Part shown: positions 15,566 to 32,000 of the stretch, piece by piece | Layout: every line of letters begins with the position of its first letter | Numbering within the stretch: position 1 is the first letter of the stretch | Assembly (NCBI RefSeq): GCF_000009705.1 | Contig: NC_003272.1 | Location: forward strand, 3,210,001 to 3,242,000 | Reading direction: 5' to 3' | Origin: Nostoc sp. PCC 7120 = FACHB-418 | GTDB taxonomy: Bacteria; Cyanobacteriota; Cyanobacteriia; Cyanobacteriales; Nostocaceae | Length of the DNA: 32,000 nucleotides | Position numbers and translations under genes: made by a program | Notes under the pieces: generated by a model | What the model saw: only the letters and a program-made list of their open reading frames with translations | Databases searched by the model: none | Told to the model about the DNA's origin: nothing

Positions 15566-15572
15566 TAATACG

Positions 15573-16289: not shown

Positions 16290-16294
16290 AACCA

Positions 16295-16367
16295 ATTCGC
16301 AATAGCCTTTGCTACGCAACGCTACCGCGAACGGCAAGGCTAACGCCAACGCAATTAGCAATTCGCA
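16295..16367. repeat. Small intergenic repeat element flanked by direct AATTCGCAAT copies
   Basis: AATTCGCAAT occurs at 16295-16304 and again at 16358-16367. These flank AGCCTTTGCTACGCAACGCTACCGCGAACGGCAAGGCT, which has imperfectly complementary ends (AGCCTT.GC / GC.AGGCT). Confidence 0.45.
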
Positions 16368-17432: not shown

Positions 17433-17471
17433 GAGACTGGGGAATTACGAATTAAAGGTTTGTAGTGAGGA

Positions 17472-17517
17472 CTTCAGTCCTCTCACAAGGACTAAAGTCC
17501 TCACTACGAACTAAATT
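17472..17517. terminator. Hairpin repeat between convergent genes (probable bidirectional terminator; common Nostocales-type GTAGTGAGGACT element)
   Basis: GTAGTGAGGACT (17472-17483) pairs with AGTCCTCACTAC (17506-17517). There is an inner AGTCCT/AGGACT pair, and ATTTTGGTTTT follows on the plus strand. The element is flanked by direct GAATTACGAATTAA copies at 17452-17465 and 17546-17559. Confidence 0.6.
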
Positions 17518-17559
17518 TTGGTTTTATCAGGTCTTTTTACTTAACGAATTACGAATTAA

Positions 17560-18540
17560 CTAAATTTGTTCCACACTTAAACCTGAAGCAATCACCGCTT
17601 GCTGACACAATTCTATGGAAGGATCACCGGCTATCACTCGTCGCTGCAAACGATGGGCGATCGCAATCATATCGGGTTGTGGCAACCAGGGAAAGACTAT
17701 CAACTCTCCTGGCTGAGAAAACATGGTAATTAGTTGCTCTAAGGTATTTGTTTGCAAGTCAGAGGGTTGGAGAACAATTAGTGTCTTTGCTTCCTCAATT
17801 AGCCACTCATGATCCCAGTCATCCTCGGTTACAGCTACGGCTAAAGCAATGGAAGGGATGTTAGCAAAAAACTCACTTGAGGCTGTGTCACCATGAAATA
17901 TTAAGTGTTGTTTACCTAACCGTAGCCATCGGCGGCTAAGTTCGGCAATGGTTTCTGGTATCGGTGGCGCGGTGATTGGTACTTCAACTATAGAGTTATT
18001 AACATCATGAGAATTGCTTTTGTCTATGGAGTTAGGTATGATAGCGATGATTTCTGACGTTGTAGTCAGAGGTAATTCTGTTTGTTCTGGAAGATTTTCT
18101 TGTTGATGCTTAATAGTTTGGACTAATTCTTTATGGGTGATGCGTTTACCAGCTTTAGCTTCTTCTATGTACTGTTCCCGCAAGTTTTCGGGTGTCGAAG
18201 GTGCAGCTAAAAGATAAAGGGCTGAGGTCGCAATGTCAATTTGTGCAAGATTTGCACGATTCCCAAAGGTTTCGTAGACATTAATGAAATTATAAGCTGT
18301 GCGGCGACTCCAACCGAATTCCGCTTTTAACCAAGTCTCAAACTGGCCATGCTTCAGTTGAGCGCGCACTTCTGCCAAACTTTGCCCAATTTCCCAAATA
18401 TCTTGAGCTGTCCGCCGTAACTGCTCTCTAATCTCGCTTGTACGTTGCTCAACTAGCGATCGCTGCTCTGGAGTGAGAATGCCATAATCAAAACTAGTCA
18501 CAATATTCTGTTTCGGATTCTTAGGCTTTGAATTAATCAT
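17560..18540 (-). CDS. DUF3102-family protein (N-terminal DUF3102-like helix bundle, uncharacterised C-terminal domain)
   Basis: The N-terminal EIGQSLAEVRAQLKHGQFETWLKAEFGWSRRTAYNFINVYETFG matches the DUF3102 pattern (HG.F..WL...F..S.R.A..F). The ATG is at 18540. Confidence 0.65.
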   Translation of the reverse strand: MINSKPKNPKQNIVTSFDYGILTPEQRSLVEQRTSEIREQLRRTAQDIWEIGQSLAEVRAQLKHGQFETWLKAEFGWSRRTAYNFINVYETFGNRANLAQIDIATSALYLLAAPSTPENLREQYIEEAKAGKRITHKELVQTIKHQQENLPEQTELPLTTTSEIIAIIPNSIDKSNSHDVNNSIVEVPITAPPIPETIAELSRRWLRLGKQHLIFHGDTASSEFFANIPSIALAVAVTEDDWDHEWLIEEAKTLIVLQPSDLQTNTLEQLITMFSQPGELIVFPWLPQPDMIAIAHRLQRRVIAGDPSIELCQQAVIASGLSVEQI

Positions 18541-19148
18541 AGTTATGGTTTTCTAGATCCATTGAGCAAAGAATTCAGTCACCTGAGATTGCTGGTAGAA
18601 CAAGCACAATGACGAGGTTATTTTAATCAGTTACAGATAATCCCTACGTTGGTAGACACACTATACGTCTAATTTTAGTGGAAAATGGGCAATTTATTGA
18701 ACTGAGACTGACAAATACTTTAACGTTAACCTAGCAATGCCTTGCTACGCATTGATTCCCAGATAGCTGGAGCTATTCTAACTGCTTTAAGATTCAACTC
18801 CCATACGCAAGATTACGTAATTTTAATGTTTGAGTTATTTTTTGCCAAATCTTGCTGTCAATATTGTGAGTAAATATCGGGATATTGCTGTTATCTCAGG
18901 TAACAACAAAAAGACTTGACAAAGTATCCCATTTATTGATTTATTGAGAATAATTATTAAAAGAGTTAAGTGGTTAATAAAAATGTCAATGTGTATTTTG
19001 TGGTATCAGGGGCAGATATATTTTGGTGGATATCTTTAACCTAGACGCAGGCTTGATTTTCCATTTGCGATCGCTCAGTTAAAAAGCACTGTAATAAATT
19101 ACGTGCATACACAATATTTTCACTATCTGAAGCCATGCGAGCTAATTT

Positions 19149-19889
19149 ATGAAAACTCCGTTGCTACCGTCGGTAAATAGTTCATTGTTAGAAGTTGACC
19201 ATATTTTTATCTGTGTTGAGACAGCACCGGAACTAGAGTTTTTTGCTAAACAGGGACTAACTGTTGCTAACACTCCTGTCAAACAACCTGATAGAGGTAC
19301 AGCCTCATATATTATTTTTTTTGATAATTTTTATATAGAATTTATCTGGATTGAGGATGAAGTCGCCGCAGAAATTTATGCAGTGCGTACAGGTATAGAT
19401 TTTTTAGCCAGATGTCTACGAAGGACTGCACCTAAGCACTTTCATGACACGAAAATTTCTCCTTTTGGGATTGCACTACGTCAGCAATCTCAGACAAAAC
19501 GTCCCCTAGAAGACTATGAATTTAGTTACTCACCACCGGGACGTTCAGAATTATTGCTAAGTTTTTCTAGTGATAATTTAGTAAATCAAACAGAACCCCT
19601 GTGTTTTTTAATTCCTGATGCCATATCTCTACCTAGACTCAAAAGAAACTTTCCTAACTTGCAACATCAGTGGATGTCTCATGCTTTGGGGTTGAAAAAG
19701 ATGACAGGGATTGAGATTAGTGCTGCTTGTGGGAATACTTTAACTCAACCTCTAGCACTGTTATCCCAAGACGGAGTGGTACAAATTGACTCTGGTTGTC
19801 CATCTATCCAGTTGACTTTTGATAATCGGGTGCAAAGAGGTGTGATAGATGCGCGAAAAATAGATATTCCTCTGGTATTAAAGTTTTAG
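19149..19889 (+). CDS. Glyoxalase-like (VOC superfamily, Glyoxalase_3-type) protein
   Basis: LEVDHIFICVETAPELEFFAKQGL ... RGTASYIIFFDNFYIEFIWIEDE resembles the LDH.F.......PE...L...GL....H.GQGT....FF.N.YLEL.W pattern of glyoxalase-like domain proteins. Confidence 0.5.
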   Translation: MKTPLLPSVNSSLLEVDHIFICVETAPELEFFAKQGLTVANTPVKQPDRGTASYIIFFDNFYIEFIWIEDEVAAEIYAVRTGIDFLARCLRRTAPKHFHDTKISPFGIALRQQSQTKRPLEDYEFSYSPPGRSELLLSFSSDNLVNQTEPLCFLIPDAISLPRLKRNFPNLQHQWMSHALGLKKMTGIEISAACGNTLTQPLALLSQDGVVQIDSGCPSIQLTFDNRVQRGVIDARKIDIPLVLKF

Positions 19890-19902
19890 GCACAAAAATC
19901 TC

Positions 19903-21645
19903 ATGAATTTGGGGAATCCTCAAATCTGGCAGCAATTTTGGCAAATTATTCAACCATACTGGTTATATCGTTGGCGAGGGGATGCGATCGCCCAATTAAT
20001 CATGCTGGTGATTTTATCCTTGGGAAGTAGTTATTTCATCATTTTTGAGATTCTCCAACGCGGAGAAATCACTTCTTCCTTAGCCGCACAGAATTTTAAT
20101 CGGTTCTACCAGACCTTTTGGTTTTTTAGCGGCGTTGTTATTATTAACGTTATATTTATCTCTCTCAAAAACTATATCCAAGCCCAAATCAGCCTTGATT
20201 GGCGAAAATGGCTGACATCTGACTATTTCCAGCAATATTTTGCCAAACAATCCTTTTATCAATTGCAGGTTAACGCTGAGATTGATAATCCAGATCAACG
20301 TTTGGCGGAAGATATCAAAAATGTCACCCAAAGATTAGTAGCACTATTTGTAATTTTTCTTGATTCTTTAGTACAGCTAATAGGTTTTATTGGTGTACTG
20401 TGGCTGATTTCTCCCTTCCTGATGTACTCCTTGGTGACCTACGCTGTAGTCGGTACACTGGTGACAACGCTGGTGTTTGGGAAAGTTTTAGTCGGAATTA
20501 ACTTAGAGCAAATCAAGCGGGAAGCGGATTTTCGCTATGGTTTAGTCAGAGTCAGAGAAAATGCAGAAGCGATCGCATTCTACAACGGACAAACCCAGGA
20601 ATCACAACAACTCAAACAGAGATTTAGTCAAGTATTTGCCAATATTAAGCGTTTAATTAGCTGGCAATTTCGGCTGAATGTCTTCCAAAACGGCTATCAG
20701 TTTCTTACCTTCATCCTACCCTTTTTGATATTAGCTCCCCGAATTTTCTCCCGTGAATTAGAAATAGGTGCAGTCACCCAATCCCAAGCAGCCTTTGAGC
20801 GAGTCGGGTTAGCACTGGGATTAATTATTACTCAATTCAATCAAATTACTACTTTAGCAGCCGGAGTTGAGCGACTTTCAGAACTAGGTAAGGCAATGCA
20901 AACAGAGGCACAAGGGAAAATTAAGTTTGCGGAAAATACAGAGATTAATATTAAAAATTTAACACTAGAAATTCCCGAAAGAGGCAACTTAATTCAAGAT
21001 ATATCTTTGAGTGTCAAACCAGGGGAATCATTAATAATTGTCGGGGAGAGTGGCGTAGGAAAGACATCATTATTGAGAGCGATCGCTGGGCTATGGTTAC
21101 ATGGAGAAGGCATAATTGAGCGTCCAGCTAATGATAGTTTGTTATTTCTCCCCCAACGTCCCTACATCACTTGGGGAAGCTTGCGACAACAATTAACCTA
21201 TCCCCAAACAACAACGAACATTCCCTCTGAAATCCTCCTCAAAACCCTCCAACAAGTACACCTACCCGACTTAGCCCAAAGCCACGGAGGCTTAGACACA
21301 GTAATTGATTGGTCAAGAGTATTATCATTAGGAGAACAACAAAGACTAGCCTTTGCCAGATTGCTCTTAATTCAACCAAAATACGCCATTTTAGACGAGT
21401 CAACAAGTGCGCTAGATGAAGAAACCGAAGCCAGTTTATATCAACAACTGCAACAAACATCAATCACCTATATCAGCGTCGGACATCGCAACACATTATT
21501 AAACTATCATCAAATGGTTTTAGAACTAGCACAGCAAAACTGGCAATTATTACCTATAGATAATTTTTGTTTCGCGCAAAGGCGCATTCGCCCTTGGCGT
21601 TCCCGCAGGGTAGACGCAAAGGATTCTCCGCGCCCCTTTGCGTGA
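19903..21645 (+). CDS. ABC half-transporter, fused permease/ATPase of the ABCD / SbmA-BacA type
   Basis: N-terminal membrane domain of about 330 aa. Walker A is GESGVGKTS, the signature is LSLGEQQRLAFARLLL, and Walker B is AILDESTSALD. It starts 13 bp after the upstream gene. The last ~24 codons (FAQRRIRPWRSRRVDAKDSPRPFA) are read from a dispersed repeat. Confidence 0.85.
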   Translation: MNLGNPQIWQQFWQIIQPYWLYRWRGDAIAQLIMLVILSLGSSYFIIFEILQRGEITSSLAAQNFNRFYQTFWFFSGVVIINVIFISLKNYIQAQISLDWRKWLTSDYFQQYFAKQSFYQLQVNAEIDNPDQRLAEDIKNVTQRLVALFVIFLDSLVQLIGFIGVLWLISPFLMYSLVTYAVVGTLVTTLVFGKVLVGINLEQIKREADFRYGLVRVRENAEAIAFYNGQTQESQQLKQRFSQVFANIKRLISWQFRLNVFQNGYQFLTFILPFLILAPRIFSRELEIGAVTQSQAAFERVGLALGLIITQFNQITTLAAGVERLSELGKAMQTEAQGKIKFAENTEINIKNLTLEIPERGNLIQDISLSVKPGESLIIVGESGVGKTSLLRAIAGLWLHGEGIIERPANDSLLFLPQRPYITWGSLRQQLTYPQTTTNIPSEILLKTLQQVHLPDLAQSHGGLDTVIDWSRVLSLGEQQRLAFARLLLIQPKYAILDESTSALDEETEASLYQQLQQTSITYISVGHRNTLLNYHQMVLELAQQNWQLLPIDNFCFAQRRIRPWRSRRVDAKDSPRPFA

Positions 21646-21670
21646 ACTCCGCGCTCCTCTGCGTTTAAAA
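21573..21670 (+). repeat. Dispersed ~100-bp repeat (family A, copy 1), MITE-like
   Basis: CGCATTCGCCCTTGGCGTTCCCGCAGGGTAGACGCAAAGGATTCTCCGCGCCCCTTTGCGT is shared with the reverse complement of 28532-28643 (CGCATTCGCCCTT...GGCGTTCCCACAGGGTAGGCGCAAAGACTC...TCTCCGCGCCCCTCTGCGT). Confidence 0.7.
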
Positions 21671-21688
21671 CTCCCCTAAATCAGTAAC

Positions 21689-21756
21689 GTAGGGTGTGTG
21701 ACGGCAACGATAAGATTTAAAACATCACGCATATATTCAACTTGCCGTCACGCACC
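21689..21756 (+). repeat. 68-bp hairpin element (family B, copy 1)
   Basis: GTAGGGTGTGTGACGGCAA ... TTGCCGTCACGCACC. The termini form a 15-bp inverted repeat with one mismatch. It is homologous to 23942-24008. Confidence 0.7.
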
Positions 21757-21767
21757 AAGCAAACATA

Positions 21768-22795
21768 ACGCCATGTGCGACTTAATATTCTGTAACAAGA
21801 TCGTCGAACTGAAGAGGGTCACAATTGTGGCGATTAAGCCAGAAACAGACGGTATGAGCTAAAATCTTGCGATTGAGACGACTGGTAAGATGCCACATAT
21901 CTCTCGCTCGAATCTTCTCTATATGAAATCTCTCAACTAATTGACCAATTACTGTTTCAATTAGGCGACGAAAGCGTTGCATTAATCGCACTGAAGATCG
22001 GCTACGAGAGTCAGACATATTAGAACGCAAAGGGGTTTGTAAAGTAATACCCACTTCTTTAAGTTCTCCTGACAAGAACTGACTTAAATAGCCCTTATCT
22101 CCGATTAATAAACCTTTAATTCGCGTGATTAAATCCCAAAGTGCGTCCCGTTCACTGCCATTTGCCGGAGTCAGGGTAAATCCACTAATAACTCCTGTGC
22201 CACTAACGATTAAATGCCCATGAAACCCATAGTACGTCTGTTTTTTAGCAGCACAAAAACCATAATCTGCAAGGGATTTAAAACTTCGGCAGTTGGGAGC
22301 GCGACTCAAGCCACACAAAGGTATTGGTAATCCATCAATCAAATGAAGTTGATCAGAGTATGCTCCTAAATACTGTGCTAATTTTTGTTGTATGAGTTCC
22401 TTGTACTGCCAACAATTAGCTGCTTGACGAATAAAAGCATAGCGACTCTTTAACTGAGGAAATAGCCCTAACCAGTGACGGTGAAAGTATTTCCAAATGT
22501 CTTTGTCAGCATCTATTCCCAAAAACTCTGCCACTACTTCCATTGTTAAAACTTCACTCTCCCTTAAACTCGGAGCAAAACCTCGTCTCTTGATTGGGTA
22601 TATCTGGGTGATTTCCATCCGCACGTCGTCAACACAGCAAAATACGGCAATGATAAACTCTTCAATAGAAAACATTTTTCCCGCATTCCATTCACTGGTA
22701 ACGATTTTCTCGCTCCAGTGCGGATTGTGGGAATTTTCTTTTCAATCGTTCATACACCTCAATTGTGTAACGAAACAATAAGTCGCACATCGCGT
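21768..22795 (-). mobile_element. IS982-family insertion sequence, apparently intact (1028 bp)
   Basis: Terminal inverted repeats ACGCCATGTGCGACTTA (21768-21784) and TAAGTCGCACATCGCGT (22779-22795) match at 16 of 17 positions. Flanking 6-bp direct repeats AACATA sit at 21762-21767 and 22796-22801. A single transposase ORF lies inside. Confidence 0.8.
21782..22675 (-). CDS. IS982-family DDE transposase
   Basis: 297 aa. Starts MFSIEEFIIAVFCCVDD and contains LIDGLPIPLCGLSRAPNCRSFKSLADYGFCAAKKQTYYGFHGHLIVSGTGVISGFTLTPANGSERDAL ... LIGDKGY, which is typical of IS982 transposases. Confidence 0.8.
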   Translation of the reverse strand: MFSIEEFIIAVFCCVDDVRMEITQIYPIKRRGFAPSLRESEVLTMEVVAEFLGIDADKDIWKYFHRHWLGLFPQLKSRYAFIRQAANCWQYKELIQQKLAQYLGAYSDQLHLIDGLPIPLCGLSRAPNCRSFKSLADYGFCAAKKQTYYGFHGHLIVSGTGVISGFTLTPANGSERDALWDLITRIKGLLIGDKGYLSQFLSGELKEVGITLQTPLRSNMSDSRSRSSVRLMQRFRRLIETVIGQLVERFHIEKIRARDMWHLTSRLNRKILAHTVCFWLNRHNCDPLQFDDLVTEY

Positions 22796-22856
22796 AACAT
22801 AGGTAATATCAATCATGATAAAATCACCCTAGCCGAAAATCACCTAAAACCTCTGC

Positions 22857-23657
22857 GTGAAAACCGACAGCATATTTTATCGCCTATTTCAACAATTCCC
22901 CAGCATCTTCTTTGAACTCATTGACAACCCTCCCGAAACTGCCAACATCTATCAATTTGCTTCCGTAGAAATCAAACAAACAGCCTTTAGAATTGATGGT
23001 GTATTTCTCCCCATCCAAGATGAAACTAAACCTATTTATTTTGTAGAAGTCCAATTTCAAGCAGATGTAGATATTTACCTGCGTCTGATTTCCGAAATTA
23101 CCCTATACTTACGCCAAAACAAACGCCAAAATCCTTGGCGGGGAGTAGTAATTTATCCTTACAGACAGATAGATACAGCCGAAAAAGCAGATTTCCTAGA
23201 ATTATTTGAGAGTCAACGTATCAAGATAATCTACTTAAATGAACTAGGTGAAGCTGGATCACTACCCATAGGCATTGCTACGATAAAATTAGTAATTGAG
23301 GCGGAAGATACAGCCATTAACACGGCTAAGGAATTAATCAACCGCACCCAACAAGCACAAAATTTGCAACTGCCACAACAACAGTTACTAGAATTAATAG
23401 AGACAATCTTAGTTTATAAATTTCCCCAAATGAGTCGCCAGGAGATAGAAGCAATGTTTGGTTTAAGTGAGTTAAAGCAAACGCGAGTTTATCAAGAAGC
23501 TAAAGAGGAAGGCAAACTAGAAGGTGAACAGGAAGGTAAACAAAAAGCCAAATTAGAAGCTATACCTAAACTGTTAGCACTGGGTTTAACCGTGGAACAA
23601 ATAGCACAGGCATTAGATTTAGATGTTACAGAAGTCCAGCAAGTAGCAGGTTTATAA
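22857..23657 (+). CDS. Rpn-family recombination-promoting nuclease / putative transposase (PD-(D/E)XK; cyanobacterial DUF4351-tailed type)
   Basis: GTG start. MKTDSIFYRLFQQFPSIFFELIDNPPETANIYQFASVEIKQTAFRIDGVFLP ... PIYFVEVQFQADVDIYLRL ... WRGVVIYPYR is the family-typical N-terminal nuclease core. The C-terminal tail is EAKEEGKLEGEQEGKQKAKLEAIPKLLALGLTVEQIAQALDLD. Confidence 0.8.
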   Translation: MKTDSIFYRLFQQFPSIFFELIDNPPETANIYQFASVEIKQTAFRIDGVFLPIQDETKPIYFVEVQFQADVDIYLRLISEITLYLRQNKRQNPWRGVVIYPYRQIDTAEKADFLELFESQRIKIIYLNELGEAGSLPIGIATIKLVIEAEDTAINTAKELINRTQQAQNLQLPQQQLLELIETILVYKFPQMSRQEIEAMFGLSELKQTRVYQEAKEEGKLEGEQEGKQKAKLEAIPKLLALGLTVEQIAQALDLDVTEVQQVAGL

Positions 23658-23913
23658 ATTTCCGCAAATGAGTCGCCAGGAGATAGAAGCAATGTTTGGT
23701 TTAAGTGAGTTAAAGCAAACACGGGTTTATCAAGAAGCTAAAGAGGAAGGCAAACTAGAAGGCAAACTAGAAGGTGAACAGGAAGGTAAACAAAAAGCCA
23801 AATTAGAAGCTGTACCTAAACTGTTAGCACTGGGTTTAACTGTAGAACAAATAGCACAGGCTTTAGATTTAGATACTGCACAAGTCCAAGAGTTAGCACA
23901 ACAAGAGCGATAA
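23412..23913 (+). repeat. Tandem duplication of the Rpn gene 3' end (unit 238 bp; second copy has a 12-bp insertion and a different 3' end)
   Basis: GTTTATAAATTTCC(C/G)CAAATGAGTCGCCAGGAGATAGAAGCAATGTTTGGTTTAAGTGAGTTAAAGCAAAC occurs starting at 23412 and again at 23650. Confidence 0.9.
23668..23913 (+). CDS. Free-standing Rpn C-terminal-domain (DUF4351-like) mini-protein, 81 aa
   Basis: MSRQEIEAMFGLSELKQTRVYQEAKEEGKLEGKLEGEQEGKQKAKLEAVPKLLALGLTVEQIAQALDLD is almost identical to residues 192-260 of the upstream Rpn ORF. The nucleotide differences are mostly synonymous. The ORF has its own ATG and stop. Confidence 0.6.
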   Translation: MSRQEIEAMFGLSELKQTRVYQEAKEEGKLEGKLEGEQEGKQKAKLEAVPKLLALGLTVEQIAQALDLDTAQVQELAQQER

Positions 23914-23941
23914 CTTCTCTTTGCTACACAAAGCTAGAGCA

Positions 23942-24008
23942 GTAGGGTGTGTTACGACAATGTGAGGATTTAAGCATGAGCGACAGTGTAAATTGCCGTA
24001 ACGCAACG
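23942..24008 (+). repeat. 68-bp hairpin element (family B, copy 2)
   Basis: GTAGGGTGTGTTACGACAA ... TTGCCGTAACGCAACG. Same orientation and architecture as 21689-21756. Confidence 0.7.
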
Positions 24009-24089
24009 TAATCAGACTCTCATATCACTTCACTGTTGAGGTAGAATCAGGGACAAATAAATTTAAAATCCCAAATTACACCTGATTAT

Positions 24090-24305
24090 ATGCTGAAAAT
24101 CAATCAACTGATAGCCCGATCGCAAACCTTGAGATTAGACAAATATAGAGATCAGCGTCCTTTGGCGTATCATCGACTAGCTAACTGGAAACTGGCTCTT
24201 AAAGCTACCCTGCTACTTGCACCAATCTTCATCCCTCTACCAGTAACTGCACAGATATCCAACATTGATATCCCATTCATGTCATTTTACGATTGGGTGG
24301 TATGA
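24090..24305 (+). CDS. Hypothetical small protein (71 aa) with one hydrophobic segment
   Basis: ORF from the track. Its stop overlaps the ATG of the next ORF in an ATGA arrangement (24302-24305). The hydrophobic stretch is LKATLLLAPIFIPLPV. No family recognised. Confidence 0.35.
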   Translation: MLKINQLIARSQTLRLDKYRDQRPLAYHRLANWKLALKATLLLAPIFIPLPVTAQISNIDIPFMSFYDWVV

Positions 24306-24508
24306 GCAATACTGACAAGCAAATCGTTGCCGATTCTATGGCATATCAAGCCGTGATGTCTGTGCTTGTGTTGAATGATCTCAAGCGTCGCGGTGACAGT
24401 GCTGGTATAGCAAAGCTACGTGAAGGTATTATTCGCAGTGCGCGGGTTCTAGGATGGGACTTCAATCGCCTGAAACTCACTAGCCAAGGCTTTGTCACCG
24501 CACGTTGA
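24302..24508 (+). CDS. Hypothetical small soluble protein (68 aa from the ATG at 24302)
   Basis: MSNTDKQIVADSMAYQAVMSVLVLNDLKRRGDSAGIAKLREGIIRSARVLGWDFNRLKLTSQGFVTAR. The 4-bp ATGA overlap with the upstream ORF suggests translational coupling. No family recognised. Confidence 0.4.
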   Translation: MSNTDKQIVADSMAYQAVMSVLVLNDLKRRGDSAGIAKLREGIIRSARVLGWDFNRLKLTSQGFVTAR

Positions 24509-24518
24509 TCGCTTTTTG

Positions 24519-26681
24519 TTAACGTTCCACATCAGCACGCAGACGCTTAACATTATCCTGTAAGACAGCAGAAGGTAAAATATAACTCCCATCAACCGCC
24601 GCATAAGTAGGAAGTTTATCTGTCACAACCTCAATAGTTGCTTGTTGTTGATTAACTTGATGTTTTTGCTGATAAATCCTATTTCCCTCTGCATCCTCCA
24701 AAGACACAGTAAACGGGATATTCAACACTGCTGATTTTTGCTCTCCCAGATTACTTGTATAAAGCTTCTGCGCTTCCACCTTCAATTTAATTTTATATTT
24801 GCCATCAGGTAACTTTTGCCAAACAGCATCAGTTAAAGATACTTGATAAGTAATAACTTCAGCAAACAATTCATTAATTACCTCTCTCTTTTCAGCCCCA
24901 GCCTTACTTAAAATTGCATCCCGTAAATCAATCACTGTTGCATAGGGAGCAGATTTATAACGATACTTATTCAAAAATTCCCGAATAGCAGATAATAAAG
25001 CCTCCTTCCCGATGATATCTTCCACCAATTCCAACACCATACCACCCTTATAACGAGCGATAGGAGTTTCATTATAAACATCAGTTAAAGGCGGTTCTTT
25101 AAAATCAATCTTTCCTAACAGACGAAAGAAATCCCGCATCAACTGTTTTCTCGCTAAAACTTGTTCTTTAGGAGTGCGTCGAGAACGTTGATAAAGTGAA
25201 CTAGCATAAGCACTCAGAGATTCATTAATTGTCATTCCCCCTGCAACATCAGCCGCCATAATTTGCTCATCCCACCAAGCTTGAGCTAACAAATATGATA
25301 ACCAATCAATGATATTTTCTTTACCTAAACCTTGGGCTTGACTTTTCCAAACTAAGACTTCAGGAATGCCAATTGTCCCAGCATCAGAAAATACCATACC
25401 ATTGTAAAAAACAAACTCCGTCACCCGCACTTGTGGAAAAGGATAAGAACCAAAAGTTTTTTCATAAAACTCTAAAGCTTCACCAATTTGAGTGGCGATG
25501 AGTTTCACATTATCTTCGTGGGTTGGATGGTAATAGATTTCAATGGGAACGCGATAATTATTATCTCGATAAACTTTGTAGCGTCCAGAATAAATAGTAA
25601 ATTCCCCACGCTTAGGAGTGGTTGATTGATAACGGAAGTATTTTCTATCTCCTTGCTTCCATTGTTTAATTAATTTCCCCGATGTGATAGCAGTTTGATT
25701 TGCTGATGTACCAATAGTAATATCTGTTTTACCCCAGCCTAAATGAGTTAACATCAGCCCTTGGGATAAACCCACCGGATCATCATGTTTTCTCATTCTG
25801 TCTTCCAGGGGTGGTAGATTTAGCTTTTGACGTAACCAAGCTTTTTTATTTTCTACCATCTTGGTGTAACCCACAAAAGGTAAGATAAAAGGACTATATA
25901 AATAAGTGCCGTTACCTACCACATCGTTAGGATAAATCATGTAGATATCATCATTATCAACCTCATTACGAAATCCTTGGGGGCGTTCAATGCGGGTGAC
26001 AAACTGCATGGTTTGTTTCTCTCCCGGCATCAGAGGTTTTTCTAGGTCATAGATGTGATATCCTAATTTATTATCAGAGGAACATAACTTTAAACCTGGG
26101 TATTTTACATCATCAATTTTTAAATTAATGAAGGTCAATAAATGAATTTCTCGTATCGGTGACTGGGTACGATTTTCTAATAAATATTCACCTTGAGCAA
26201 TAAAATAACGTTGCTCTGGATAAAGGTCAATATTTAGCCGAGTTTCAGTCACAACCGGCATAGGCAGATTTTCATACTTTTTGTATCGCCTTTCCACCTC
26301 CGCCGCCGTTTCTTCGCTGGTAGGTGGTTTGTATGCGTTAACGATAATTGTGTTGTAACCAATCCATCCTCCCACACCTGCAAACATGAATATTAAAGCT
26401 GCTAAAGCACGTTTGACTTTTTTATTAGTATTTCGCCAACCTCTTTGCCAATCTTTAACTAAATTTTGATCAAATGTCCCACGGGGATAAATAATATATG
26501 CCAGCATCATTAAAATTGCTCCCCCAATTGCCCAGTAAAGACTATACCAAAGATGTCCGATTAACAGATGTCCGTAACCGTTCATTAAGGAATATTCAAT
26601 ATCATTGGTAGCAGCAAAACGGTAGAGATTATGATATAAACCCAGGGCGTGGAGAGGAATTTTTGAGAGAGAAATTAACAC
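24519..26681 (-). CDS. Membrane-anchored M1-peptidase-like protein lacking the HExxH zinc site (ABC-2 transporter accessory or fusion-partner domain)
   Basis: GTG start overlapping the permease stop. Two N-terminal helices separated by a basic loop, then about 600 aa resembling the M1 aminopeptidase domain of the ABC permease/M1 fusion family (IEIYYHPTHEDNV; YLLAQAWWDEQI....INESLSAYAS). The only HE dipeptide in the 720 aa is in THEDN. Confidence 0.7.
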   Translation of the reverse strand: MLISLSKIPLHALGLYHNLYRFAATNDIEYSLMNGYGHLLIGHLWYSLYWAIGGAILMMLAYIIYPRGTFDQNLVKDWQRGWRNTNKKVKRALAALIFMFAGVGGWIGYNTIIVNAYKPPTSEETAAEVERRYKKYENLPMPVVTETRLNIDLYPEQRYFIAQGEYLLENRTQSPIREIHLLTFINLKIDDVKYPGLKLCSSDNKLGYHIYDLEKPLMPGEKQTMQFVTRIERPQGFRNEVDNDDIYMIYPNDVVGNGTYLYSPFILPFVGYTKMVENKKAWLRQKLNLPPLEDRMRKHDDPVGLSQGLMLTHLGWGKTDITIGTSANQTAITSGKLIKQWKQGDRKYFRYQSTTPKRGEFTIYSGRYKVYRDNNYRVPIEIYYHPTHEDNVKLIATQIGEALEFYEKTFGSYPFPQVRVTEFVFYNGMVFSDAGTIGIPEVLVWKSQAQGLGKENIIDWLSYLLAQAWWDEQIMAADVAGGMTINESLSAYASSLYQRSRRTPKEQVLARKQLMRDFFRLLGKIDFKEPPLTDVYNETPIARYKGGMVLELVEDIIGKEALLSAIREFLNKYRYKSAPYATVIDLRDAILSKAGAEKREVINELFAEVITYQVSLTDAVWQKLPDGKYKIKLKVEAQKLYTSNLGEQKSAVLNIPFTVSLEDAEGNRIYQQKHQVNQQQATIEVVTDKLPTYAAVDGSYILPSAVLQDNVKRLRADVER

Positions 26682-27646
26682 CCTCGTAAAATTAAGTTAG
26701 TTTCAAACCAAGCGCGGTTAATCCATTGTTGCCATAGTAAGGAAGATGCAGGAGAATAAGCGGGGGAATAATTTCTATTGATATTTATTGGTTGAGACTT
26801 TGTAGTCTTCACTTTGGTTTTCACAGGAGATTTTCCCATCACCTTCATTGAATAGGTGTGATAACTCCACATCCAACCAGCCACAGCAATGGTAATCCAA
26901 AGTAGACGATTCCACAGCAGTGTTCCCCCTAAAGACGGCATCAAATTATTATGCTGGAAAACTGTCCAAGTCAGGGTTTTTTCTTCAAAAGCATAAAAGC
27001 CAAAGGGGTCTAACATTGCCCAGATGCGGTATAATTCAAAGTCGATGACATCTACCCCCACCAGCATCAGAGAAACCAGGTAGAGCATGACAAGAACAAT
27101 TGCCCCAGCATAGGTAATGATAATACTTCTGGTTTTGGAAGCAATACTAAATGCGATCGCAGAAACTAAAAATAGATTGGGTAATACAAATAATACATAA
27201 CTAGCCACATAAGCTTCAGGACGAAATGCACCCAAAGCAAAGGGGTTTAATCCAGGTATAACAGTACCTAAAAGCATCCCTGGTATATAGGTAGAAAACG
27301 CCAAAAGCGTCATTCCAAATGCAGCGATGAAGCGGGTTGTTAAATAGTCCCGTTTACGGATGGGAGTAGCCAAAATTAAAGCTTCCATACGGTAATTACT
27401 ATCCCGCACAAAAGTTTCAGCCACAAAAGCCGATGCTGCCAAAATTCCAAAAATGGTATACCAAATAGTAACTTGAAAGATTTCCGCCGGACTATTGACA
27501 AAAAAGAAGGCGTTACCAGGCCCAGCTTTCGCAACTATATCGGTGAGTCCAATGGCGAAAAATAAGATAGCAATTAACCAAAACGTCGGGCGACGGAGAT
27601 GATAAAAAGTTTCAAACCGCAAAATAGCGGAAAATGCTTGTTTCAT
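26675..27646 (-). CDS. ABC-2-type transporter permease (about 6 helices)
   Basis: 323 aa and hydrophobic throughout. Its ATG overlaps the ATPase stop (ATGA at 27643-27646). The N-terminal RFETFYHLRRPTFW motif and DPFGFYAFEEKTLTWT are typical of the permease part of ABC-2/M1 fusion proteins. Confidence 0.75.
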   Translation of the reverse strand: MKQAFSAILRFETFYHLRRPTFWLIAILFFAIGLTDIVAKAGPGNAFFFVNSPAEIFQVTIWYTIFGILAASAFVAETFVRDSNYRMEALILATPIRKRDYLTTRFIAAFGMTLLAFSTYIPGMLLGTVIPGLNPFALGAFRPEAYVASYVLFVLPNLFLVSAIAFSIASKTRSIIITYAGAIVLVMLYLVSLMLVGVDVIDFELYRIWAMLDPFGFYAFEEKTLTWTVFQHNNLMPSLGGTLLWNRLLWITIAVAGWMWSYHTYSMKVMGKSPVKTKVKTTKSQPININRNYSPAYSPASSLLWQQWINRAWFETNLILRGC

Positions 27647-28524
27647 ACAGCAATAGTTTGAGATTGGGGTTTATCTAATAACGCAATGAAATAAACATCA
27701 TTTAAATCCGGTTCAACAGGTTGAAAATCCTTACCGGGTTGAGAATCACTTAAAACGCGCACCCATCTTTCTCCCCGCGACATTCGGGAAGTAATTACCG
27801 TTAATTCTTCAACATTGCTCGTTTCTGAATGCAGTGCAGTCCAAACTCTGCCATTTAAAGCATTAATTAAAGCCTGTGGACTACCACTGCGAAGGATTTC
27901 ACCCCTATTCATAATCGCCATATTCGGGCATAATTCGGCGACATCTTCGACAATATGGGTAGAGAGTAGTAAAACTCTGTCTTGGCTGATTTCTGAAAGC
28001 AAATTATGAAACCGGATGCGTTCTGCTGGATCTAAACCTGCGGTTGGCTCATCTACTATTACGAGTTTGGGTGAACCGAGTAAAGCTTGAGCAATTCCGA
28101 AACGCTGGCGCATACCACCGGAAAAAGTGCCTAATTTCTGTTGACGCTGTTCGTATAGATTGACAAGTTGCAGTTGTTGTGCAACTATTTCTCGTCGTTG
28201 TTGATGATGAATAAATCCTTTGAAGACGGCTAATTGATCTAGTAAATCTTCAGCTGAAACACTTGGATAAACGCCAAAATCTTGAGGTAAATAACCTAAG
28301 ATACTACGAGCAGATTGGGGATTTTTGAGGAAATTTACGCCGTCTAATTCTATTGAGCCAGAATCAGCATCTTGGAGAGTGGCTAGTGTCCGCATGAGGC
28401 TAGATTTCCCTGCACCGTTTGGGCCGAGTAATCCGAAGATGCCGTAATCTATTTTTAAGGATATATCTCTTAGGGCTTGGATGCCGTTGGGGTATTTTTT
28501 GTTTAATTGTTTGATGATGAGCAT
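27643..28524 (-). CDS. ABC transporter ATP-binding protein (ABC-2 subfamily)
   Basis: Walker A is GPNGAGKSS, the signature is FSGGMRQRFGIAQAL, and Walker B is LVIVDEPTAGLD. I place the start at the ATG at 28524 (MLIIKQLNKKYPNG). The 44-codon upstream extension in the ORF track is read from repeat DNA. Confidence 0.9.
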   Translation of the reverse strand: MLIIKQLNKKYPNGIQALRDISLKIDYGIFGLLGPNGAGKSSLMRTLATLQDADSGSIELDGVNFLKNPQSARSILGYLPQDFGVYPSVSAEDLLDQLAVFKGFIHHQQRREIVAQQLQLVNLYEQRQQKLGTFSGGMRQRFGIAQALLGSPKLVIVDEPTAGLDPAERIRFHNLLSEISQDRVLLLSTHIVEDVAELCPNMAIMNRGEILRSGSPQALINALNGRVWTALHSETSNVEELTVITSRMSRGERWVRVLSDSQPGKDFQPVEPDLNDVYFIALLDKPQSQTIAV

Positions 28525-28531
28525 GATTTTT

Positions 28532-28643
28532 TTAACGCAGAGGGGCGCGGAGAGAGATTTTATGAGGGAGTTCTTTGAGTCTTTGCGCCTACCCTGTGGG
28601 AACGCCTTGGCGCAGCCTCTCGTAGAGAAGGGCGAATGCGTGA
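28532..28643 (-). repeat. Dispersed repeat (family A, copy 2, inverted relative to copy 1) between the MFS and ABC genes
   Basis: The reverse complement reads CGCATTCGCCCTTCTCTACGAGAGGCTGCGCCAAGGCGTTCCCACAGGGTAGGCGCAAAGACTC...TCTCCGCGCCCCTCTGCGTTAAAA. It matches 21573-21670 apart from an internal ~21-bp extra segment. Confidence 0.7.
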
Positions 28644-28655
28644 GATAAAACCCCA

Positions 28656-29969
28656 TTAATCAACAACGCCAGAACTTTCAGGAAGCTTCTGATCAGGAAT
28701 TAAGTCTTCTACTTTTCGCAAAGTGCGCCAGGTGTAACCGAAAATACCTACTAAGACTGTGCAGATAGTCATACTGACAAATAGTAAAGTAATCCCTGAA
28801 CCAGTCCCAGTCCCAAAGATGTTGCCGAAAATCGGGGCTAAAATCCCTGTGGGACGCATGGCGGGTTCAAAGACTCTATCAGCCAGGAAACCAGCAATTA
28901 AGGGGGTGATGGCGGCTACAGTTACGCCTATGAGTTGATCGGCTGCGAGGACTCGTCCTTGTAAGCCTGGGGGAATTGTGGCATACCATATAGCGTTACT
29001 GGAACTGTAAAACAAGGGAATGAGTGTGGATGAAAGAAAATGCGCTCCCATCCACACCGATACTGTTTGCCCCAGTCCGATCAGGGTTCTAAAAATACCG
29101 TGTCCGATGAAACCTAGTAACATTCCGTGTATACGGCGATGGAATCCGCCCCAAATACTAAGGGCGATCGCCCCAATGACACCCCCAATCCCCGCCGCCG
29201 TGGTGACTGTGCCGAGAATTTCTGAGTTGCCACCTGTACGGGCTAGAATCATCGGTGTGTAAAGGACTTTACTTATATCGTTGGGAATGGCGAATAATGT
29301 GAAGGCGATCGCCATTGCTGTTAATGATGGATTTGCCCAAATATAACGAAATCCAAATGTTAATTTTTGCCATAAGCTCTCAGTATTATCCCGGTGATTT
29401 GGCTCAACGGCAGGCTGGGGAATTTTGACGATGAGTAAGGTGATGAAGGCAGCAGCAAAAGTTGTTAAGTCAATCCAGAAGATAGCCTGCAACCCCAGAC
29501 GGGGATATATAAACCCGGCTAAGGCCGGAGAAAATATGGCTGCACTGTAGTTAACGGCTGAACCTAAACTTTCTGCACGGGTAAATTGTTCTTTGGGAAC
29601 TAATAGGGATATGGAGGCAGAATAGGCGAGAACTTGTAATTGCCCAAAGCCACCGTAAAGCATGACAATTATATACAAGTGCCACACCTGTAATTGTTGG
29701 TTTAGGTATAGGATGGCGATCGCTAGGGTACACAACACGGCGACAACTTCCGCCAAAATCATCAGAAAGCGACGATTAAACCTATCTACCGCAATACCAG
29801 CAAAGGTGGTAATCAGGATTTTTGGCATCTGGGCAAAAAAGCCGACTAACGCCAAAGCTGTCGCTGAACCAGTTTTATCCCAAACCCAAATCGTCAGGGC
29901 AAACACTGTCATAAAACTACCGATGGTAGATATTATCTGTCCTAGCCAGATGATCAAAAAAGTTCGCAT
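28656..29969 (-). CDS. MFS transporter (MFS_3 / EntS-like efflux type)
   Basis: About 12 hydrophobic segments. The N-terminal MRTFLIIWLGQIISTIGSFMTVFALTIWVWDKTGSATALALVGFF is typical of the enterobactin-exporter-like MFS subfamily. The ATG at 29969 is preferred over the TTG at 29984. Confidence 0.8.
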   Translation of the reverse strand: MRTFLIIWLGQIISTIGSFMTVFALTIWVWDKTGSATALALVGFFAQMPKILITTFAGIAVDRFNRRFLMILAEVVAVLCTLAIAILYLNQQLQVWHLYIIVMLYGGFGQLQVLAYSASISLLVPKEQFTRAESLGSAVNYSAAIFSPALAGFIYPRLGLQAIFWIDLTTFAAAFITLLIVKIPQPAVEPNHRDNTESLWQKLTFGFRYIWANPSLTAMAIAFTLFAIPNDISKVLYTPMILARTGGNSEILGTVTTAAGIGGVIGAIALSIWGGFHRRIHGMLLGFIGHGIFRTLIGLGQTVSVWMGAHFLSSTLIPLFYSSSNAIWYATIPPGLQGRVLAADQLIGVTVAAITPLIAGFLADRVFEPAMRPTGILAPIFGNIFGTGTGSGITLLFVSMTICTVLVGIFGYTWRTLRKVEDLIPDQKLPESSGVVD

Positions 29970-30006
29970 AGTTTCTGGGGACAAATCAATTCAAAATTCA
30001 AAATTG

Positions 30007-30061
30007 GGGACTGGGTATTGGGTATGGAATTTTCTCCCCCTGCTCCCTGCCCCCTGCCGCC
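30007..30061. repeat. STRR-like G-run/C-run heptamer element directly downstream of the TonB-dependent receptor stop
   Basis: GGGGACTGGGTATTGGGTATGG ... CTCCCCCTGCTCCCTGCCCCCTGCCGCC. Same layout as 13001-13051. Tandem TCAAAAT heptamers are adjacent at about 29991-30004. Confidence 0.55.
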
Positions 30062-30066
30062 ATGAA

Positions 30067-32000
30067 TTAAAATTCAAAGGAGACACTACCTGTCAAAGTA
30101 AAGGGCGCACCTGGAATTACACGCACAATGTCCCGCGCACCTTCGTAGTAATTTTCATCGAATAGGTTTTGAATATTAATGGCGGCGCGGAATTTGTCAC
30201 GGCGGTAAAAGATGGAAGCATCTGTACGCAAGTAGCTAGGTAATGTGAAGGTGTTGCGTAGGTCTCCTTGGCGTTCTCCTTGCGTGAAAACACCTAATCC
30301 AAATCCTAACCCTTTGAGGCTTCCGGCTTGCAGTTCGTAGGTACTCCACAAACCAAAGGAGTTTCTGGGAACGTTTTGTAATTGTCTATCTTGAAATTCG
30401 GGGCGACTATCTTCGGTGATTTTGCTATCTGTATAGGCGTAACTGGCTGTTAAGTTCCAACCAGGGAGAATTTCCCCGGCTACGTCTAATTCTATACCTT
30501 GGCTGCGTTGCTTGCCGATTTGGATTTGGGAGAGGGGTTCGCTGAGTCCTTGGGCTGCAACGTTGGTACGTTCTAGATTATAAAATGCGAGAGTGGTGGA
30601 GAGGCGATCGCCTAATAAATTTGCTTTTAAACCCACTTCATACTGAGTTCCTCTTTCTGGTTCAAAGGGTTCGCCAACTGTTGTTATTCCTGTGTTTGTG
30701 TCTAAAACCCTGGTTCTACCAACAACGGGTGTAAAGGATCTACTGTAGCTGGCATACAAAGAAAGGTTTTCACTAGGTTTGTAAACAATACCGACACGGG
30801 GACTAAAAACTGTGTCGTTACGTTCAAAGCTTTCTTCTTCTGAGAGTAAGTCTTCATAGTCTTGGTTAACAAAATCCAAACGTCCACCCAAAACTAAAAT
30901 AATATTTTTGGATAGGGAAATTTGGTCTTGAGCATAAATCCCCAAAGAATTTTTCTCGGTATTAGTATTACCAAAAGGAATGGCAAATGATGACACACTC
31001 TCAGGACGATAGACGGGATTGAAAATATCAATGTCTCTGAGTTGTCTAAAATCTAGTCTATCTTCTGTTTCCTCTCTAGTAACTTCCACACCAAACAGTA
31101 AACTGTGTTCAATACTGCCTGTTTTGAACTTACCTAAGAGGCTATTATTAAACGTCAAACTGGTCGTACTAGATGGGTTTTCTACTAAAAAGCGTCGGAG
31201 TGTACGACCATCTCTATTTAGTCCATTTGATGTACTAGAGTTAGCGATAGGAAGCACTACGGTACTTTCTGGAACATCTAAAAAGGCTGTAGAAAATTCA
31301 CTTTTGATTGTCCAGTTATCATTGAGGCGATGGTCTAACTGATAGCCTAAACGGGTAACTAAAGACTCACTTTCAGATAATGATGGTTCACCTAAGTTAG
31401 TCTCTCGTGAAACTCTACCATTAGGGTTGGAAATAACTGTTCCTGACGCTGGTAAGTCTGGTGCTGTCTCAAAACTGCGGTATTTCAGATATTCTATGCT
31501 TGCTGTTAAATTTGTATTTTCGTTACCTATTAATCTAACAACAGGCGCAATAAAAAAGGATTCACTATTCTCGAAATCTTTAAAGCTTTCAGCAGTTTGA
31601 TAAGCCGCATTCAAACGATAAGCAACACCATCTTTATCTAAGGGGCCAGAAAAGTCGATGGTGGGACGATGTAAACCAAATTGTCCTACTTGATAGCCAA
31701 TAGAGTAGTAAGGTGTATTTAGAGGTTGTTTAGTAACTAGGTTGACGACCCCACCTAAATCACCTTGTCCAAAGAGGACGGAAGCTGGGCCTTTGAGGAC
31801 TTCTACGCGTTCAACGTTAGCAATTTCACTTTGAAACCGTAAGCTATCATCCCTTAAACCGTTGCGTAATAAGTTACGAGATTCAAAGCCCCGAATTACT
31901 GGAGTTAGTGCTGGTGCTTGGGAAGATGTCCGACCGCTACTAGCACTACTAGTATTTTTTAAGACTTCGCCAAGGCTGCGAGTTCCTTGGTCTTTAATAA
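30067..32000 (-). CDS. TonB-dependent (siderophore-type) outer-membrane receptor, C-terminal ~644 codons (5' end outside the window)
   Basis: The reading frame stays open upstream of the TTG listed in the track, all the way to 32000. My translation gives IKDQGTRSLGEVLKNTSS...VIRGFESRN...NVERVEVLKGPASVLFGQGDLGGVVNLVTKQP (plug domain), then beta-barrel repeats, and ends ...TLTGSVSFEF with a terminal aromatic residue. Confidence 0.9.
   Translation of the reverse strand, partial: IKDQGTRSLGEVLKNTSSASSGRTSSQAPALTPVIRGFESRNLLRNGLRDDSLRFQSEIANVERVEVLKGPASVLFGQGDLGGVVNLVTKQPLNTPYYSIGYQVGQFGLHRPTIDFSGPLDKDGVAYRLNAAYQTAESFKDFENSESFFIAPVVRLIGNENTNLTASIEYLKYRSFETAPDLPASGTVISNPNGRVSRETNLGEPSLSESESLVTRLGYQLDHRLNDNWTIKSEFSTAFLDVPESTVVLPIANSSTSNGLNRDGRTLRRFLVENPSSTTSLTFNNSLLGKFKTGSIEHSLLFGVEVTREETEDRLDFRQLRDIDIFNPVYRPESVSSFAIPFGNTNTEKNSLGIYAQDQISLSKNIILVLGGRLDFVNQDYEDLLSEEESFERNDTVFSPRVGIVYKPSENLSLYASYSRSFTPVVGRTRVLDTNTGITTVGEPFEPERGTQYEVGLKANLLGDRLSTTLAFYNLERTNVAAQGLSEPLSQIQIGKQRSQGIELDVAGEILPGWNLTASYAYTDSKITEDSRPEFQDRQLQNVPRNSFGLWSTYELQAGSLKGLGFGLGVFTQGERQGDLRNTFTLPSYLRTDASIFYRRDKFRAAINIQNLFDENYYEGARDIVRVIPGAPFTLTGSVSFEF

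Follow-up and report, generated by a model that had tools for sequence, protein, structure and literature searches.

Within a 32,000-nucleotide (nt) stretch of DNA from Nostoc sp. PCC 7120 (contig NC_003272.1, positions 3,210,001 to 3,242,000; hereafter the window, in whose own numbering all coordinates are given), we found that the minus-strand region 24519..27646 is a single gene that had been read as two. It is this strain's member of a fusion-protein family whose products are approximately 1200 amino acids (aa) long and in which an ATP-binding cassette (ABC) permease of the ABC-2 type is joined to a domain resembling the M1 aminopeptidases. The reading that we favor is that a deletion broke this copy, that its M1-like domain belongs to a conserved subfamily without the zinc site, and that the intact relatives would be siderophore-handling type-V ABC machines; we put the probability of this reading as a whole at roughly 70%. 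An initial annotation, made by a model from the sequence and its open reading frames (ORFs), had described a membrane-anchored 720-aa protein with a dismantled zinc site, coupled to an ABC-2 exporter encoded immediately upstream. The 720-aa ORF and all the strings quoted from it are present, and its tie between the M1-like domain and an ABC-2 pump holds, the two being fused in one protein in intact relatives.

A fusion gene broken by a deletion

The ORF at 24519..26681 (minus strand), 720 codons long with a GTG start, corresponds to aa 479-1198 of its closest homolog, a single fused protein of 1198 aa from Nostoc parmelioides (P0001), with 96% identity over 720 aa. The ORF that precedes it on the same strand, 26675..27646, corresponds to aa 1-322 of P0001 at 95% identity and encodes the first NosY-like ABC-2 module with six transmembrane (TM) helices. 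These are the 3' and 5' remnants of the same gene, and the stretch between them, aa 323-478 of P0001, has no counterpart in the window. A blastn comparison with the N. parmelioides locus (L001) breaks at the junction 26681..26682 (minus strand; window 26682|26681 against L001 3258|3728), where 469 nt (L001 3259..3727) encoding TM7-TM10 and the start of TM11 are gone. The junction is blunt, and a check of it for microhomology or repeats found none. Because 469 is not divisible by three, the deletion shifted the reading frame, and this shift produced the overlapping stop and start codons together with the apparent "323-aa permease" and "720-aa protein". The scar reads …CGA GGG TGT TAA in one frame, in which the 323-aa ORF of the 5' remnant terminates in an out-of-frame Cys-stop, and GTG TTA ATT in the other, so that the GTG "start" of the 720-codon ORF is the Val479 codon of the 1198-codon ortholog gene. 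What had been read as a separate upstream ABC-2 gene with overlapping stop and start codons is therefore the frameshift scar of this deletion, and the "two N-terminal helices" ascribed to the 720-aa protein are TM12 and TM13 of the fused gene.

The homolog search returned approximately 120 proteins; apart from those cut short by the end of a contig, nearly all have lengths of 1190-1260 aa. The NCBI name for P0001 and its family of approximately 1200-aa proteins is "ABC transporter permease/M1 family aminopeptidase". Wherever both sides of the break could be aligned in a related locus, approximately 468 nt lie between them. The window copy, as a remnant, lacks the continuous frame of approximately 1200 codons with both ABC-2 modules. 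Its orthology to the fusion family is carried by the 95-96% identity to P0001 on both sides of the break and by the conserved synteny of the ABC ATPase, the major facilitator superfamily (MFS) gene, and the TonB-dependent receptor gene. The sole Pfam ABC-2 match in P0001, to PF12730 (ABC2_membrane_4) at residues 324-482, coincides with the deleted stretch. The gene also looks disrupted in three other loci, namely L072 (a Waterburya metagenome-assembled genome [MAG] with an internal deletion of approximately 490 aa), and L058 (a Leptolyngbya MAG) and L071, both with frame changes, which could be true losses or else errors of long-read or MAG assembly.

Architecture and the dismantled zinc site

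In intact members of the family, two tandem NosY-like 6-TM ABC-2 modules are followed by a 13th helix and then by an M1 fold of approximately 600 aa. Hydropathy and lysine-plus-arginine counts for P0001 predict 13 TM helices, with the N-terminus inside and the C-terminal 606 residues outside; all of its basic loops are predicted to be cytoplasmic, including the loop with RGWRNTNKKVKR between TM12 and TM13. From translation, hydropathy, and the basic-residue counts on the ortholog, the window remnant carries TM12 at 26490..26567, the basic cytoplasmic loop with RGWRNTNKKVKR at 26418..26489, TM13 at 26340..26417, and then the M1-fold domain at 24522..26339 (all minus strand). An AlphaFold2 model of P0001 from an 88-sequence alignment (pLDDT 88, pTM 0.85) shows TM12 and TM13 as helices 517-541 and 565-592; TM13 is predicted to return the chain to the periplasm. 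The M1-like domain is thus probably periplasmic, in line with the initial annotation, with the predicted C-terminus out.

The M1 fold, which the initial annotation had recognized from a few landmarks, is supported by structural and profile comparisons. A Foldseek search of the P0001 model against the Protein Data Bank (PDB) retrieved IRAP, ERAP1/2, PepN, and APN at E ~1e-18 and probability 1.0 over approximately 600 columns, and profile searches against the PDB gave M1 homology at E values from 9e-7 to 1.6e-15. In the model, a thermolysin-like domain and a beta-sandwich follow the N-terminal beta domain, and helical domain IV is absent. A single-sequence PDB search yielded weak M1 matches only, the best of which was tricorn-interacting factor F3 (E 3.5e-4), with the TFIID subunit TAF2 (6hqa) also among the weak matches of the window protein. 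The profile check that the initial annotation had suggested gave a divided answer: the Peptidase_M1 model PF01433 scored the window ORF at 18.3 bits (E 0.0019) and the ortholog at 17 bits, below the gathering cut-off of 27.7, and a Pfam scan of the window's 323-aa ORF returned zero matches, while the profile homology to aminopeptidase N described below was significant. The second ABC-2 module of the ortholog likewise reached 26.0 bits against PF12730, with a cut-off of 27. The N-terminal module, modeled from the window sequence (pLDDT 91), found its best solved match in NosY of NosDFY (TM-score 0.68-0.73, target-normalised; E 1.6e-4), followed by PmtCD, ABCG2, and Wzm, and on this model it is a type-V (ABC-2) transporter fold.

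Across the 720-aa ORF we detected neither an HExxH nor an HxxEH motif, and the single HE dipeptide is at aa 388, as claimed. RGWRNTNKKVKR, IEIYYHPTHEDNV, and YLLAQAWWDEQIMAADVAGGMTINESLSAYAS are located at aa 80, aa 380, and aa 463, respectively, and YLLAQAWWDEQ...INESL spans aa 463-489. Instead of HExxH-x18-E the window protein has YLLAQ-x19-E, in which YLLAQ occupies the HExxH position (25281..25295, minus strand), so that the first zinc His is replaced by Tyr463, the catalytic Glu by Leu464, and the second His by Gln467. The distal Glu is retained as E487 (25221..25223, minus strand), and Arg543 (25053..25055, minus strand) takes the position that the catalytic Tyr holds in Y-x-K-G. We took a census of these positions in an alignment of 67 members of the zinc-less clade (the dead clade) with 25 distant HExxH-bearing homologs (the live clade; 26-31% identity). 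The first His is Tyr and the catalytic Glu is Leu in 66/67 dead-clade members each, and the second His position is occupied by Q in 37, H in 15, Y in 10, K and R in two each, and L in one. Arg replaces the catalytic Tyr in 97% of the dead clade. All 25 live-clade proteins have the canonical HExxH-x18-E as well as the Y-x-K-G Tyr; the distal Glu does not vary in either group (67/67 and 25/25). A profile built from the dead clade only finds aminopeptidase N (8t41) at E 9e-7 with the same residue placement as the alignment, setting sYLLAQaWW on vlHEmaHmWF, irEals on lnEsfa, and iaRhKG on itYaKG. Both comparisons bear out the initial annotation in that neither zinc histidine nor the catalytic Glu survives and the distal Glu does, and they add the loss of the catalytic Tyr; judged by its sequence and predicted fold, the domain is an M1-fold pseudo-enzyme from which the catalytic M1 features are missing. 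The GxMEN motif is also absent, its aligned segment being NGMVFSDAG. This position is non-canonical in the live clade as well (FAQSFP in P0095-P0120, columns at window aa 427-441), and the HExxH-bearing fusion proteins may not be strict aminopeptidases.

Members of the dead clade come from cyanobacteria, Planctomycetota, Verrucomicrobiota, and Pseudomonadota, with identities of 42-96%. We found that 20/25 of its clade-specific fixed differences fall within aa 414-543, around the former active site, and that conservation at the ex-active site is 0.80-0.84 compared with a domain average of 0.74. The initial annotation had named strain-specific decay with elevated non-synonymous change as grounds for doubt; the loss of the zinc site is not strain decay, because the substitutions are fixed clade-wide and the site varies less than the remainder of the domain, and the ratio of non-synonymous to synonymous divergence (dN/dS; below) is low. 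An exhaustive search of 1.84 billion representatives returned 959 relatives at E < 1e-30, and we typed the sites in the best 146 of these (50% identity representatives): 131 were canonical, four belonged to the dead clade (including the window protein), nine were otherwise degenerate, and two were near-canonical. Identity drops from 43% to 33% between the dead and live groups, and on these sequence comparisons the window clade is a small, tight zinc-less offshoot of a large, presumably active family. The nine other degenerate sites include HMMA, HLMA, HLLA, LMLS, NFIV, and RMGS, and eight of the nine also have Arg for Tyr, so either the zinc motif was lost several times or a larger dead superclade exists. 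Representatives of these other lineages with a lost zinc motif are P0125, P0126, P0127, P0138, P0141, P0144, P0169, and P0213.

The closest relatives of the dead clade are the HExxH-bearing fusion proteins (e.g., P0095 of Massilia endophytica), which have the same length, the same two ABC-2 modules, TM13, and M1 domain, and the same partner ATPase directly upstream, with 26-33% identity over the C-terminal 720 aa (E 1e-68 to 1e-103). They retain HExxH-x18-E and the catalytic Tyr, whereas the window clade has Y-L-x-x-[QHY], E, and Arg. Both clades share a conserved insertion in the beta domain (ORF aa 249-300, approximately 25782..25937; NGT..YSPFILPFVGYTKMVE.KKAWLR.KL.LPPL..RMR.HDDP), whose equivalent in the P0001 model (residues ~727-778) forms a few short helices and strands and may contact the membrane modules. 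Non-catalytic M1 homologs that use the M1 fold as a binding scaffold are known from eukaryotes, namely TAF2 and yeast Tma108, of which Tma108 retains the zinc motif. Unlike the window family, both are soluble and reside in the nucleus or cytosol, and neither is fused to a transporter. Tma108 is the M1 example in a review of pseudopeptidases, which does not describe a bacterial M1 pseudopeptidase (PMC11266112).

Conserved context and proposed function

The one near-universal neighbor of the fusion gene is an ABC ATPase, which lies directly upstream on the same strand in 45/50 loci with at least 1.5 kb of upstream sequence. In the window, the cognate ATPase (293 aa; 27643..28524, minus strand; PF00005 E 8.5e-29) is 88% identical to its 293-aa ortholog and has a stop codon that overlaps the permease start. 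As called mechanically, the ORF is longer (27643..28656, minus strand), with 44 additional N-terminal codons (MGFYLTH...) that the 293-aa orthologs lack; the true start is most likely the ATG at 28524. In four loci of the Crocosphaera/Cyanothece group (L019, L022, L039, and L075), MFS or polyketide synthase (PKS) genes take the place of an ABC ATPase, which must be encoded elsewhere or shared because none was found within 8-10 kb upstream.

We detected siderophore-type or iron-stress genes within 10 kb in 39/51 loci having at least 6 kb of flank, so the iron link that the initial annotation drew from one gene cluster extends well beyond the window. CctD-like Suc_Fer proteins were encoded in 15 loci, DevB/DevC in 14-15, type-II thioesterases in 10, and IsiA-type antenna proteins in nine, five of which have the gene 350-580 nt downstream in the same orientation. 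Flavodoxin genes occurred in five loci, Fur in three, and TonB-dependent receptors, several with an AMIN domain, in at least six. Other types included were FAAL, PKS, nonribosomal peptide synthetase (NRPS), EntS-like MFS, and OFeT. The kind of neighbor changes with lineage: Nostocales loci combine MFS and CctD-like genes with a TonB-dependent receptor gene, which in the ortholog is of the AMIN type; Leptolyngbya/Phormidesmis-like MAGs have isiA and flavodoxin at the downstream distance given above, also on the same strand; Calothrix/Rivularia-type loci have Fur and DevBCA; and Pseudomonadota loci have NRPS, thioesterase, TonB-dependent receptor, and Fur genes. In one Pseudomonadota MAG (L067) an NRPS gene ends approximately 150 nt before the ATPase, L065 carries Fur, MATE, TonB-dependent receptor, and thioesterase genes, in one planctomycete PepSY_TM immediately precedes the ATPase, and in Cyanothece 51142 the fusion gene comes after PKS genes. 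Because such different kinds of iron and siderophore genes flank the ATPase-fusion pair in distant lineages, inherited synteny alone is insufficient as an explanation, and the iron hypothesis is strengthened by this comparative sequence context. We rejected the TonB receptor and MFS neighborhood of the window as a conserved unit, since that arrangement was seen only in Nostoc, Trichormus, and one MAG; an MFS homolog lies near the gene in only 4-5 related loci.

Several of these neighbors recur in a known system. The cyanochelin cassette CctA-J comprises an AMIN-domain TonB-dependent transporter, an MFS exporter, the thioredoxin-like ferredoxin CctD, DevBCA, and a FecCD-type importer with a substrate-binding protein, and an ABC-2/M1 protein is not among its components (bioRxiv 10.64898/2026.07.30.741596); the cyanochelin C paper does not mention one. 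AMIN-type transporter, MFS, CctD-like, and DevBCA genes recur around the loci of the pseudo-M1 pump, and the window itself has a TonB-dependent receptor, an MFS exporter, and a CctD-like protein. It differs in that neither a periplasmic substrate-binding protein nor FecCD permeases were found among the scanned window ORFs (at least 100 aa in 1..18000 and at least 80 aa in 18000..32000).

A precedent for the motor is NosDFY, in which ATP hydrolysis drives periplasmic events and not classical export. This closest solved machine (NosDFY/NosFY; PDB 7o0y, 7o0z, 7znq, and 7qba) is likewise an ABC-2 membrane dimer with an ATPase and a large periplasmic partner domain. It differs from the window family in that NosD, a beta-helix protein, is encoded separately and is not a fused M1 fold, that two separate NosY chains form a homodimer where the family has both modules in one chain, and that the cargo is copper for NosZ; sequence identity is only 16-18%. 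For the head, the closest conceptual precedent is the C39 peptidase domain, which is active in PCAT transporters and dead in HlyB-type transporters, whose C39-like domain (CLD) has lost the catalytic residue and still binds cargo. There too a peptidase domain is fused to an ABC transporter in active and dead versions, although the two arrangements are not homologous: C39 and CLD have a cysteine-peptidase fold that sits in the cytoplasm at the N-terminus of a type IV exporter, whereas the window family has a C-terminal metallopeptidase fold, predicted to be periplasmic, on a type V transporter.

In parallel with these systems, with ATP hydrolysis coupled to a periplasmic partner as in NosDFY and cargo held by a dead peptidase domain as in HlyB, the ATPase of intact relatives would drive a type-V (ABC-2) membrane machine, and the periplasmic head would serve as a peptide-binding scaffold that no longer cuts. 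The head would bind a (lipo)peptide siderophore, or a precursor of one, and leave it unhydrolysed while it is exported, drawn out of the membrane, or handed over in the periplasm. From the genomic context we infer that the intact system would most likely be a machine, driven by ATP, that handles peptide-type siderophores in the periplasm or exports them. The more specific proposal, that the zinc-less head is the ligand-binding module of a siderophore-handling ABC machine with a NosDFY-like motor, loading, extracting, or handing over (lipo)peptide siderophores, is tentative, and taken by itself we would sooner bet against it than for it; in its boldest form, the site of Tyr, Glu, Asp, and Arg might hold the ferric complex.

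The strongest competitor, which we consider unlikely, is that the family has no specific role with siderophores and is a general ABC-2 exporter or protection system for amphipathic or antimicrobial peptides, surface polymers, or gliding, with iron neighbors that reflect shared islands or inherited synteny. The best NCBIfam matches of the ATPase are of the GldA, DrrA, NodI, and lantibiotic-protection types (all below cut-offs), the second-best structural match of the permease is the peptide exporter PmtCD, and the one live-clade locus that we examined (Massilia) lacks iron neighbors. Set against this is the variety of iron and siderophore genes that accompany the pair across Nostocales, Leptolyngbya/Phormidesmis-like and Calothrix/Rivularia-type cyanobacteria, Pseudomonadota, and one planctomycete. 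Several points nevertheless weigh against the reading that we favor. The siderophore link is guilt by association among loci that are phylogenetically non-independent, 12/51 loci have no siderophore or iron neighbor, and the partner ATPase is non-adjacent in Crocosphaera and Cyanothece. ABC-2 transporters serve many substrates, and the likeness of the ATPase to GldA, DrrA, and lantibiotic-protection types fits other roles equally. The periplasmic placement of the head is based on hydropathy and the positive-inside rule. Literature searches on the permease/M1 fusion (including cce_3081 and the Pfam domain names) found nothing relevant, with no experimental characterization of any member of the HExxH-bearing or the zinc-less group. 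Finally, the 720-codon remnant of the window is still an open frame under apparent purifying selection, and the gene fragments might keep some residual function.

State of the window copy and its surroundings

The window copy is most likely non-functional, because the deletion cut the gene in two and removed four TM helices. The same junction recurs in an independently assembled JGI metagenome contig (L076; 3300014779, Ga0169465_1002608) that matches window 27865..24405 at 99.9-100% identity; an exact-junction search of metagenome contigs had returned no match, and the junction in L076 was found by another route. This contig also carries a further 46-nt deletion inside the M1-like domain (window 25426..25471), which shifts the frame and cuts the C-terminal frame into 416 and 292 codons and suggests that the gene is decaying stepwise through small deletions. 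The adjoining downstream DUF6683 gene (24090..24505, plus strand) has suffered a 424-nt frameshifting deletion relative to N. parmelioides at 24293|24294, so that the parts corresponding to aa 1-68 and aa 210-280 of its ortholog fall in different frames. That deletion is also blunt and similar in size to the 469-nt one, and the DUF6683 gene lies 14 nt from the end of the fused gene. We rejected relaxed selection on the remnant: against N. parmelioides, the C-terminal and N-terminal fragments have dN/dS values of 0.12 and 0.095, respectively, similar to the 0.11 of both the intact ATPase and MFS genes, and with Trichormus as outgroup the polarized counts of non-synonymous to synonymous changes come to 6:22 for the window branch and 7:22 for its sister. 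Such low values are expected if the deletion is simply recent, and we infer that the window copy is a young, recently inactivated pseudogene.

In a modified form of the initial annotation's model, the deletion would have created a functional split system, in which the 720-aa ORF is expressed by GTG re-initiation as a stand-alone membrane-anchored pseudo-M1 protein and works in trans with the ATPase and a homodimer of the 322-aa module. The ORF is intact over 720 codons with the low dN/dS just given and no non-synonymous excess on the window branch, the GTGTTAA overlap of stop and start could allow translational coupling, and the N-terminal fragment is a complete NosY-like module, NosY itself acting as a homodimer. 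On the other side, a split arrangement was seen in none of approximately 70 related loci, the C-terminal fragment begins inside TM11 with its first 15 residues too short to span the membrane, the neighboring DUF6683 gene is likewise inactivated by a deletion, and a recent deletion would leave dN/dS low in any case. We regard a functional split as improbable because the fragment starts within a TM helix, no other lineage is split, and the near-identical strain represented by L076 is decaying further.

A slightly less probable alternative, and a very doubtful one, concerns the clade as a whole: the domain would still be catalytic, with a remodeled site of Tyr463, Glu471/Asp472, Glu487, Arg543, and, in some members, a His at position 467 that binds another metal such as Fe(III) or works metal-free, and that hydrolyses the transported substrate or acts on it by some other reaction. 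Tyr, Glu, and Asp together with an anion-holding Arg are typical ligands of hard metals, as in the sites of transferrin and FbpA, and they speak for this view, as do the fixation of the substituted residues, the higher conservation of the site than of the rest of the domain, and the iron-related genomic context. It is opposed by the general base Glu being Leu in all but one of the 67 members and the transition-state Tyr being Arg, by the variation at the second-His position (Q, H, Y, K, R, and L), which argues against a conserved ligand there, and by the absence of alternative HExxH or HxxEH motifs from the ORF. The last alternative, an assembly or sequencing artefact in a gene that is intact in the organism, would suit the single clean junction and remaining sequence free of decay and is nonetheless so improbable that it can be set aside, because the junction is repeated in the independently assembled L076, the next gene is hit by a second deletion of similar size, and the junction has no repeats able to mislead an assembler.

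Upstream of the ATPase on the minus strand, the window contains an MFS_3/EntS-like major-facilitator exporter at 28656..29984 (PF05977 and PF07690) and a TonB-dependent siderophore receptor at 30067..32000, which continues beyond the window end (TIGR01783, 252 bits, above the cut-off of 223.5). The receptor ortholog is 873 aa long and 98% identical, with AMIN, Plug, and barrel domains. We considered whether the receptor gene might be a second pseudogene, given an internal TTG start and a profile match from position 149, and rejected this, as the frame is open to 31998 and the ortholog is 98% identical. Farther away, a Suc_Fer-like thioredoxin-like ferredoxin of the CctD family is encoded at 16368..17432 (plus strand; PF06999 E 7e-34).

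Other changes relative to N. parmelioides mark the same region. An insertion sequence (IS)-type DDE transposase (PF13612; 21782..22675, minus strand) is inserted approximately 2.5 kb from the broken gene, at a site where N. parmelioides carries a PIN-domain gene pair, and beside it DUF2887 is partly duplicated (region 22796..23913; C-terminal ~80 aa, copies at 22857..23657 and 23668..23913). Divergence of window 24519..32000 from N. parmelioides (L002) is mosaic, with synonymous divergence (dS) of 0.16 in the M1-like part, 0.25 in the N-terminal permease, 0.55 in the ATPase, and 0.45 in the MFS gene, and with 97% DNA identity and 98% protein identity in the TonB receptor, which suggests recombination inside the cluster. 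A plasmid origin was rejected, as there was no megablast match in PLSDB. At the other end of the window, a 3262-aa ORF (2609..12397, minus strand) combines Big_9/cadherin-like repeats and PPC domains with RTX nonapeptide repeats at its C-terminus; it probably encodes a giant adhesin-like protein that is secreted.

These results define a conserved bacterial pseudo-M1 domain, as judged from sequence and models, on a NosY-like ABC-2 pump, a metallopeptidase counterpart to the dead C39-like domains of the HlyB type. They also bear on annotation: the window copy is a deletion remnant that is wrongly read as two genes, and proteins of the clade are labeled "peptidase" or "M1 family aminopeptidase" in public records despite their lost catalytic residues. 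For this Nostoc strain, they suggest that one component is being lost while the receptor, the MFS exporter, and the ATPase stay intact. If the siderophore link is true, the pump would be a missing component of cyanobacterial siderophore traffic, new and widespread in cyanobacterial siderophore cassettes and present in some Pseudomonadota, and possibly in Planctomycetota too, judging by the one locus with PepSY_TM. The head would then be a peptidase cleft converted from cutting peptides to holding them.

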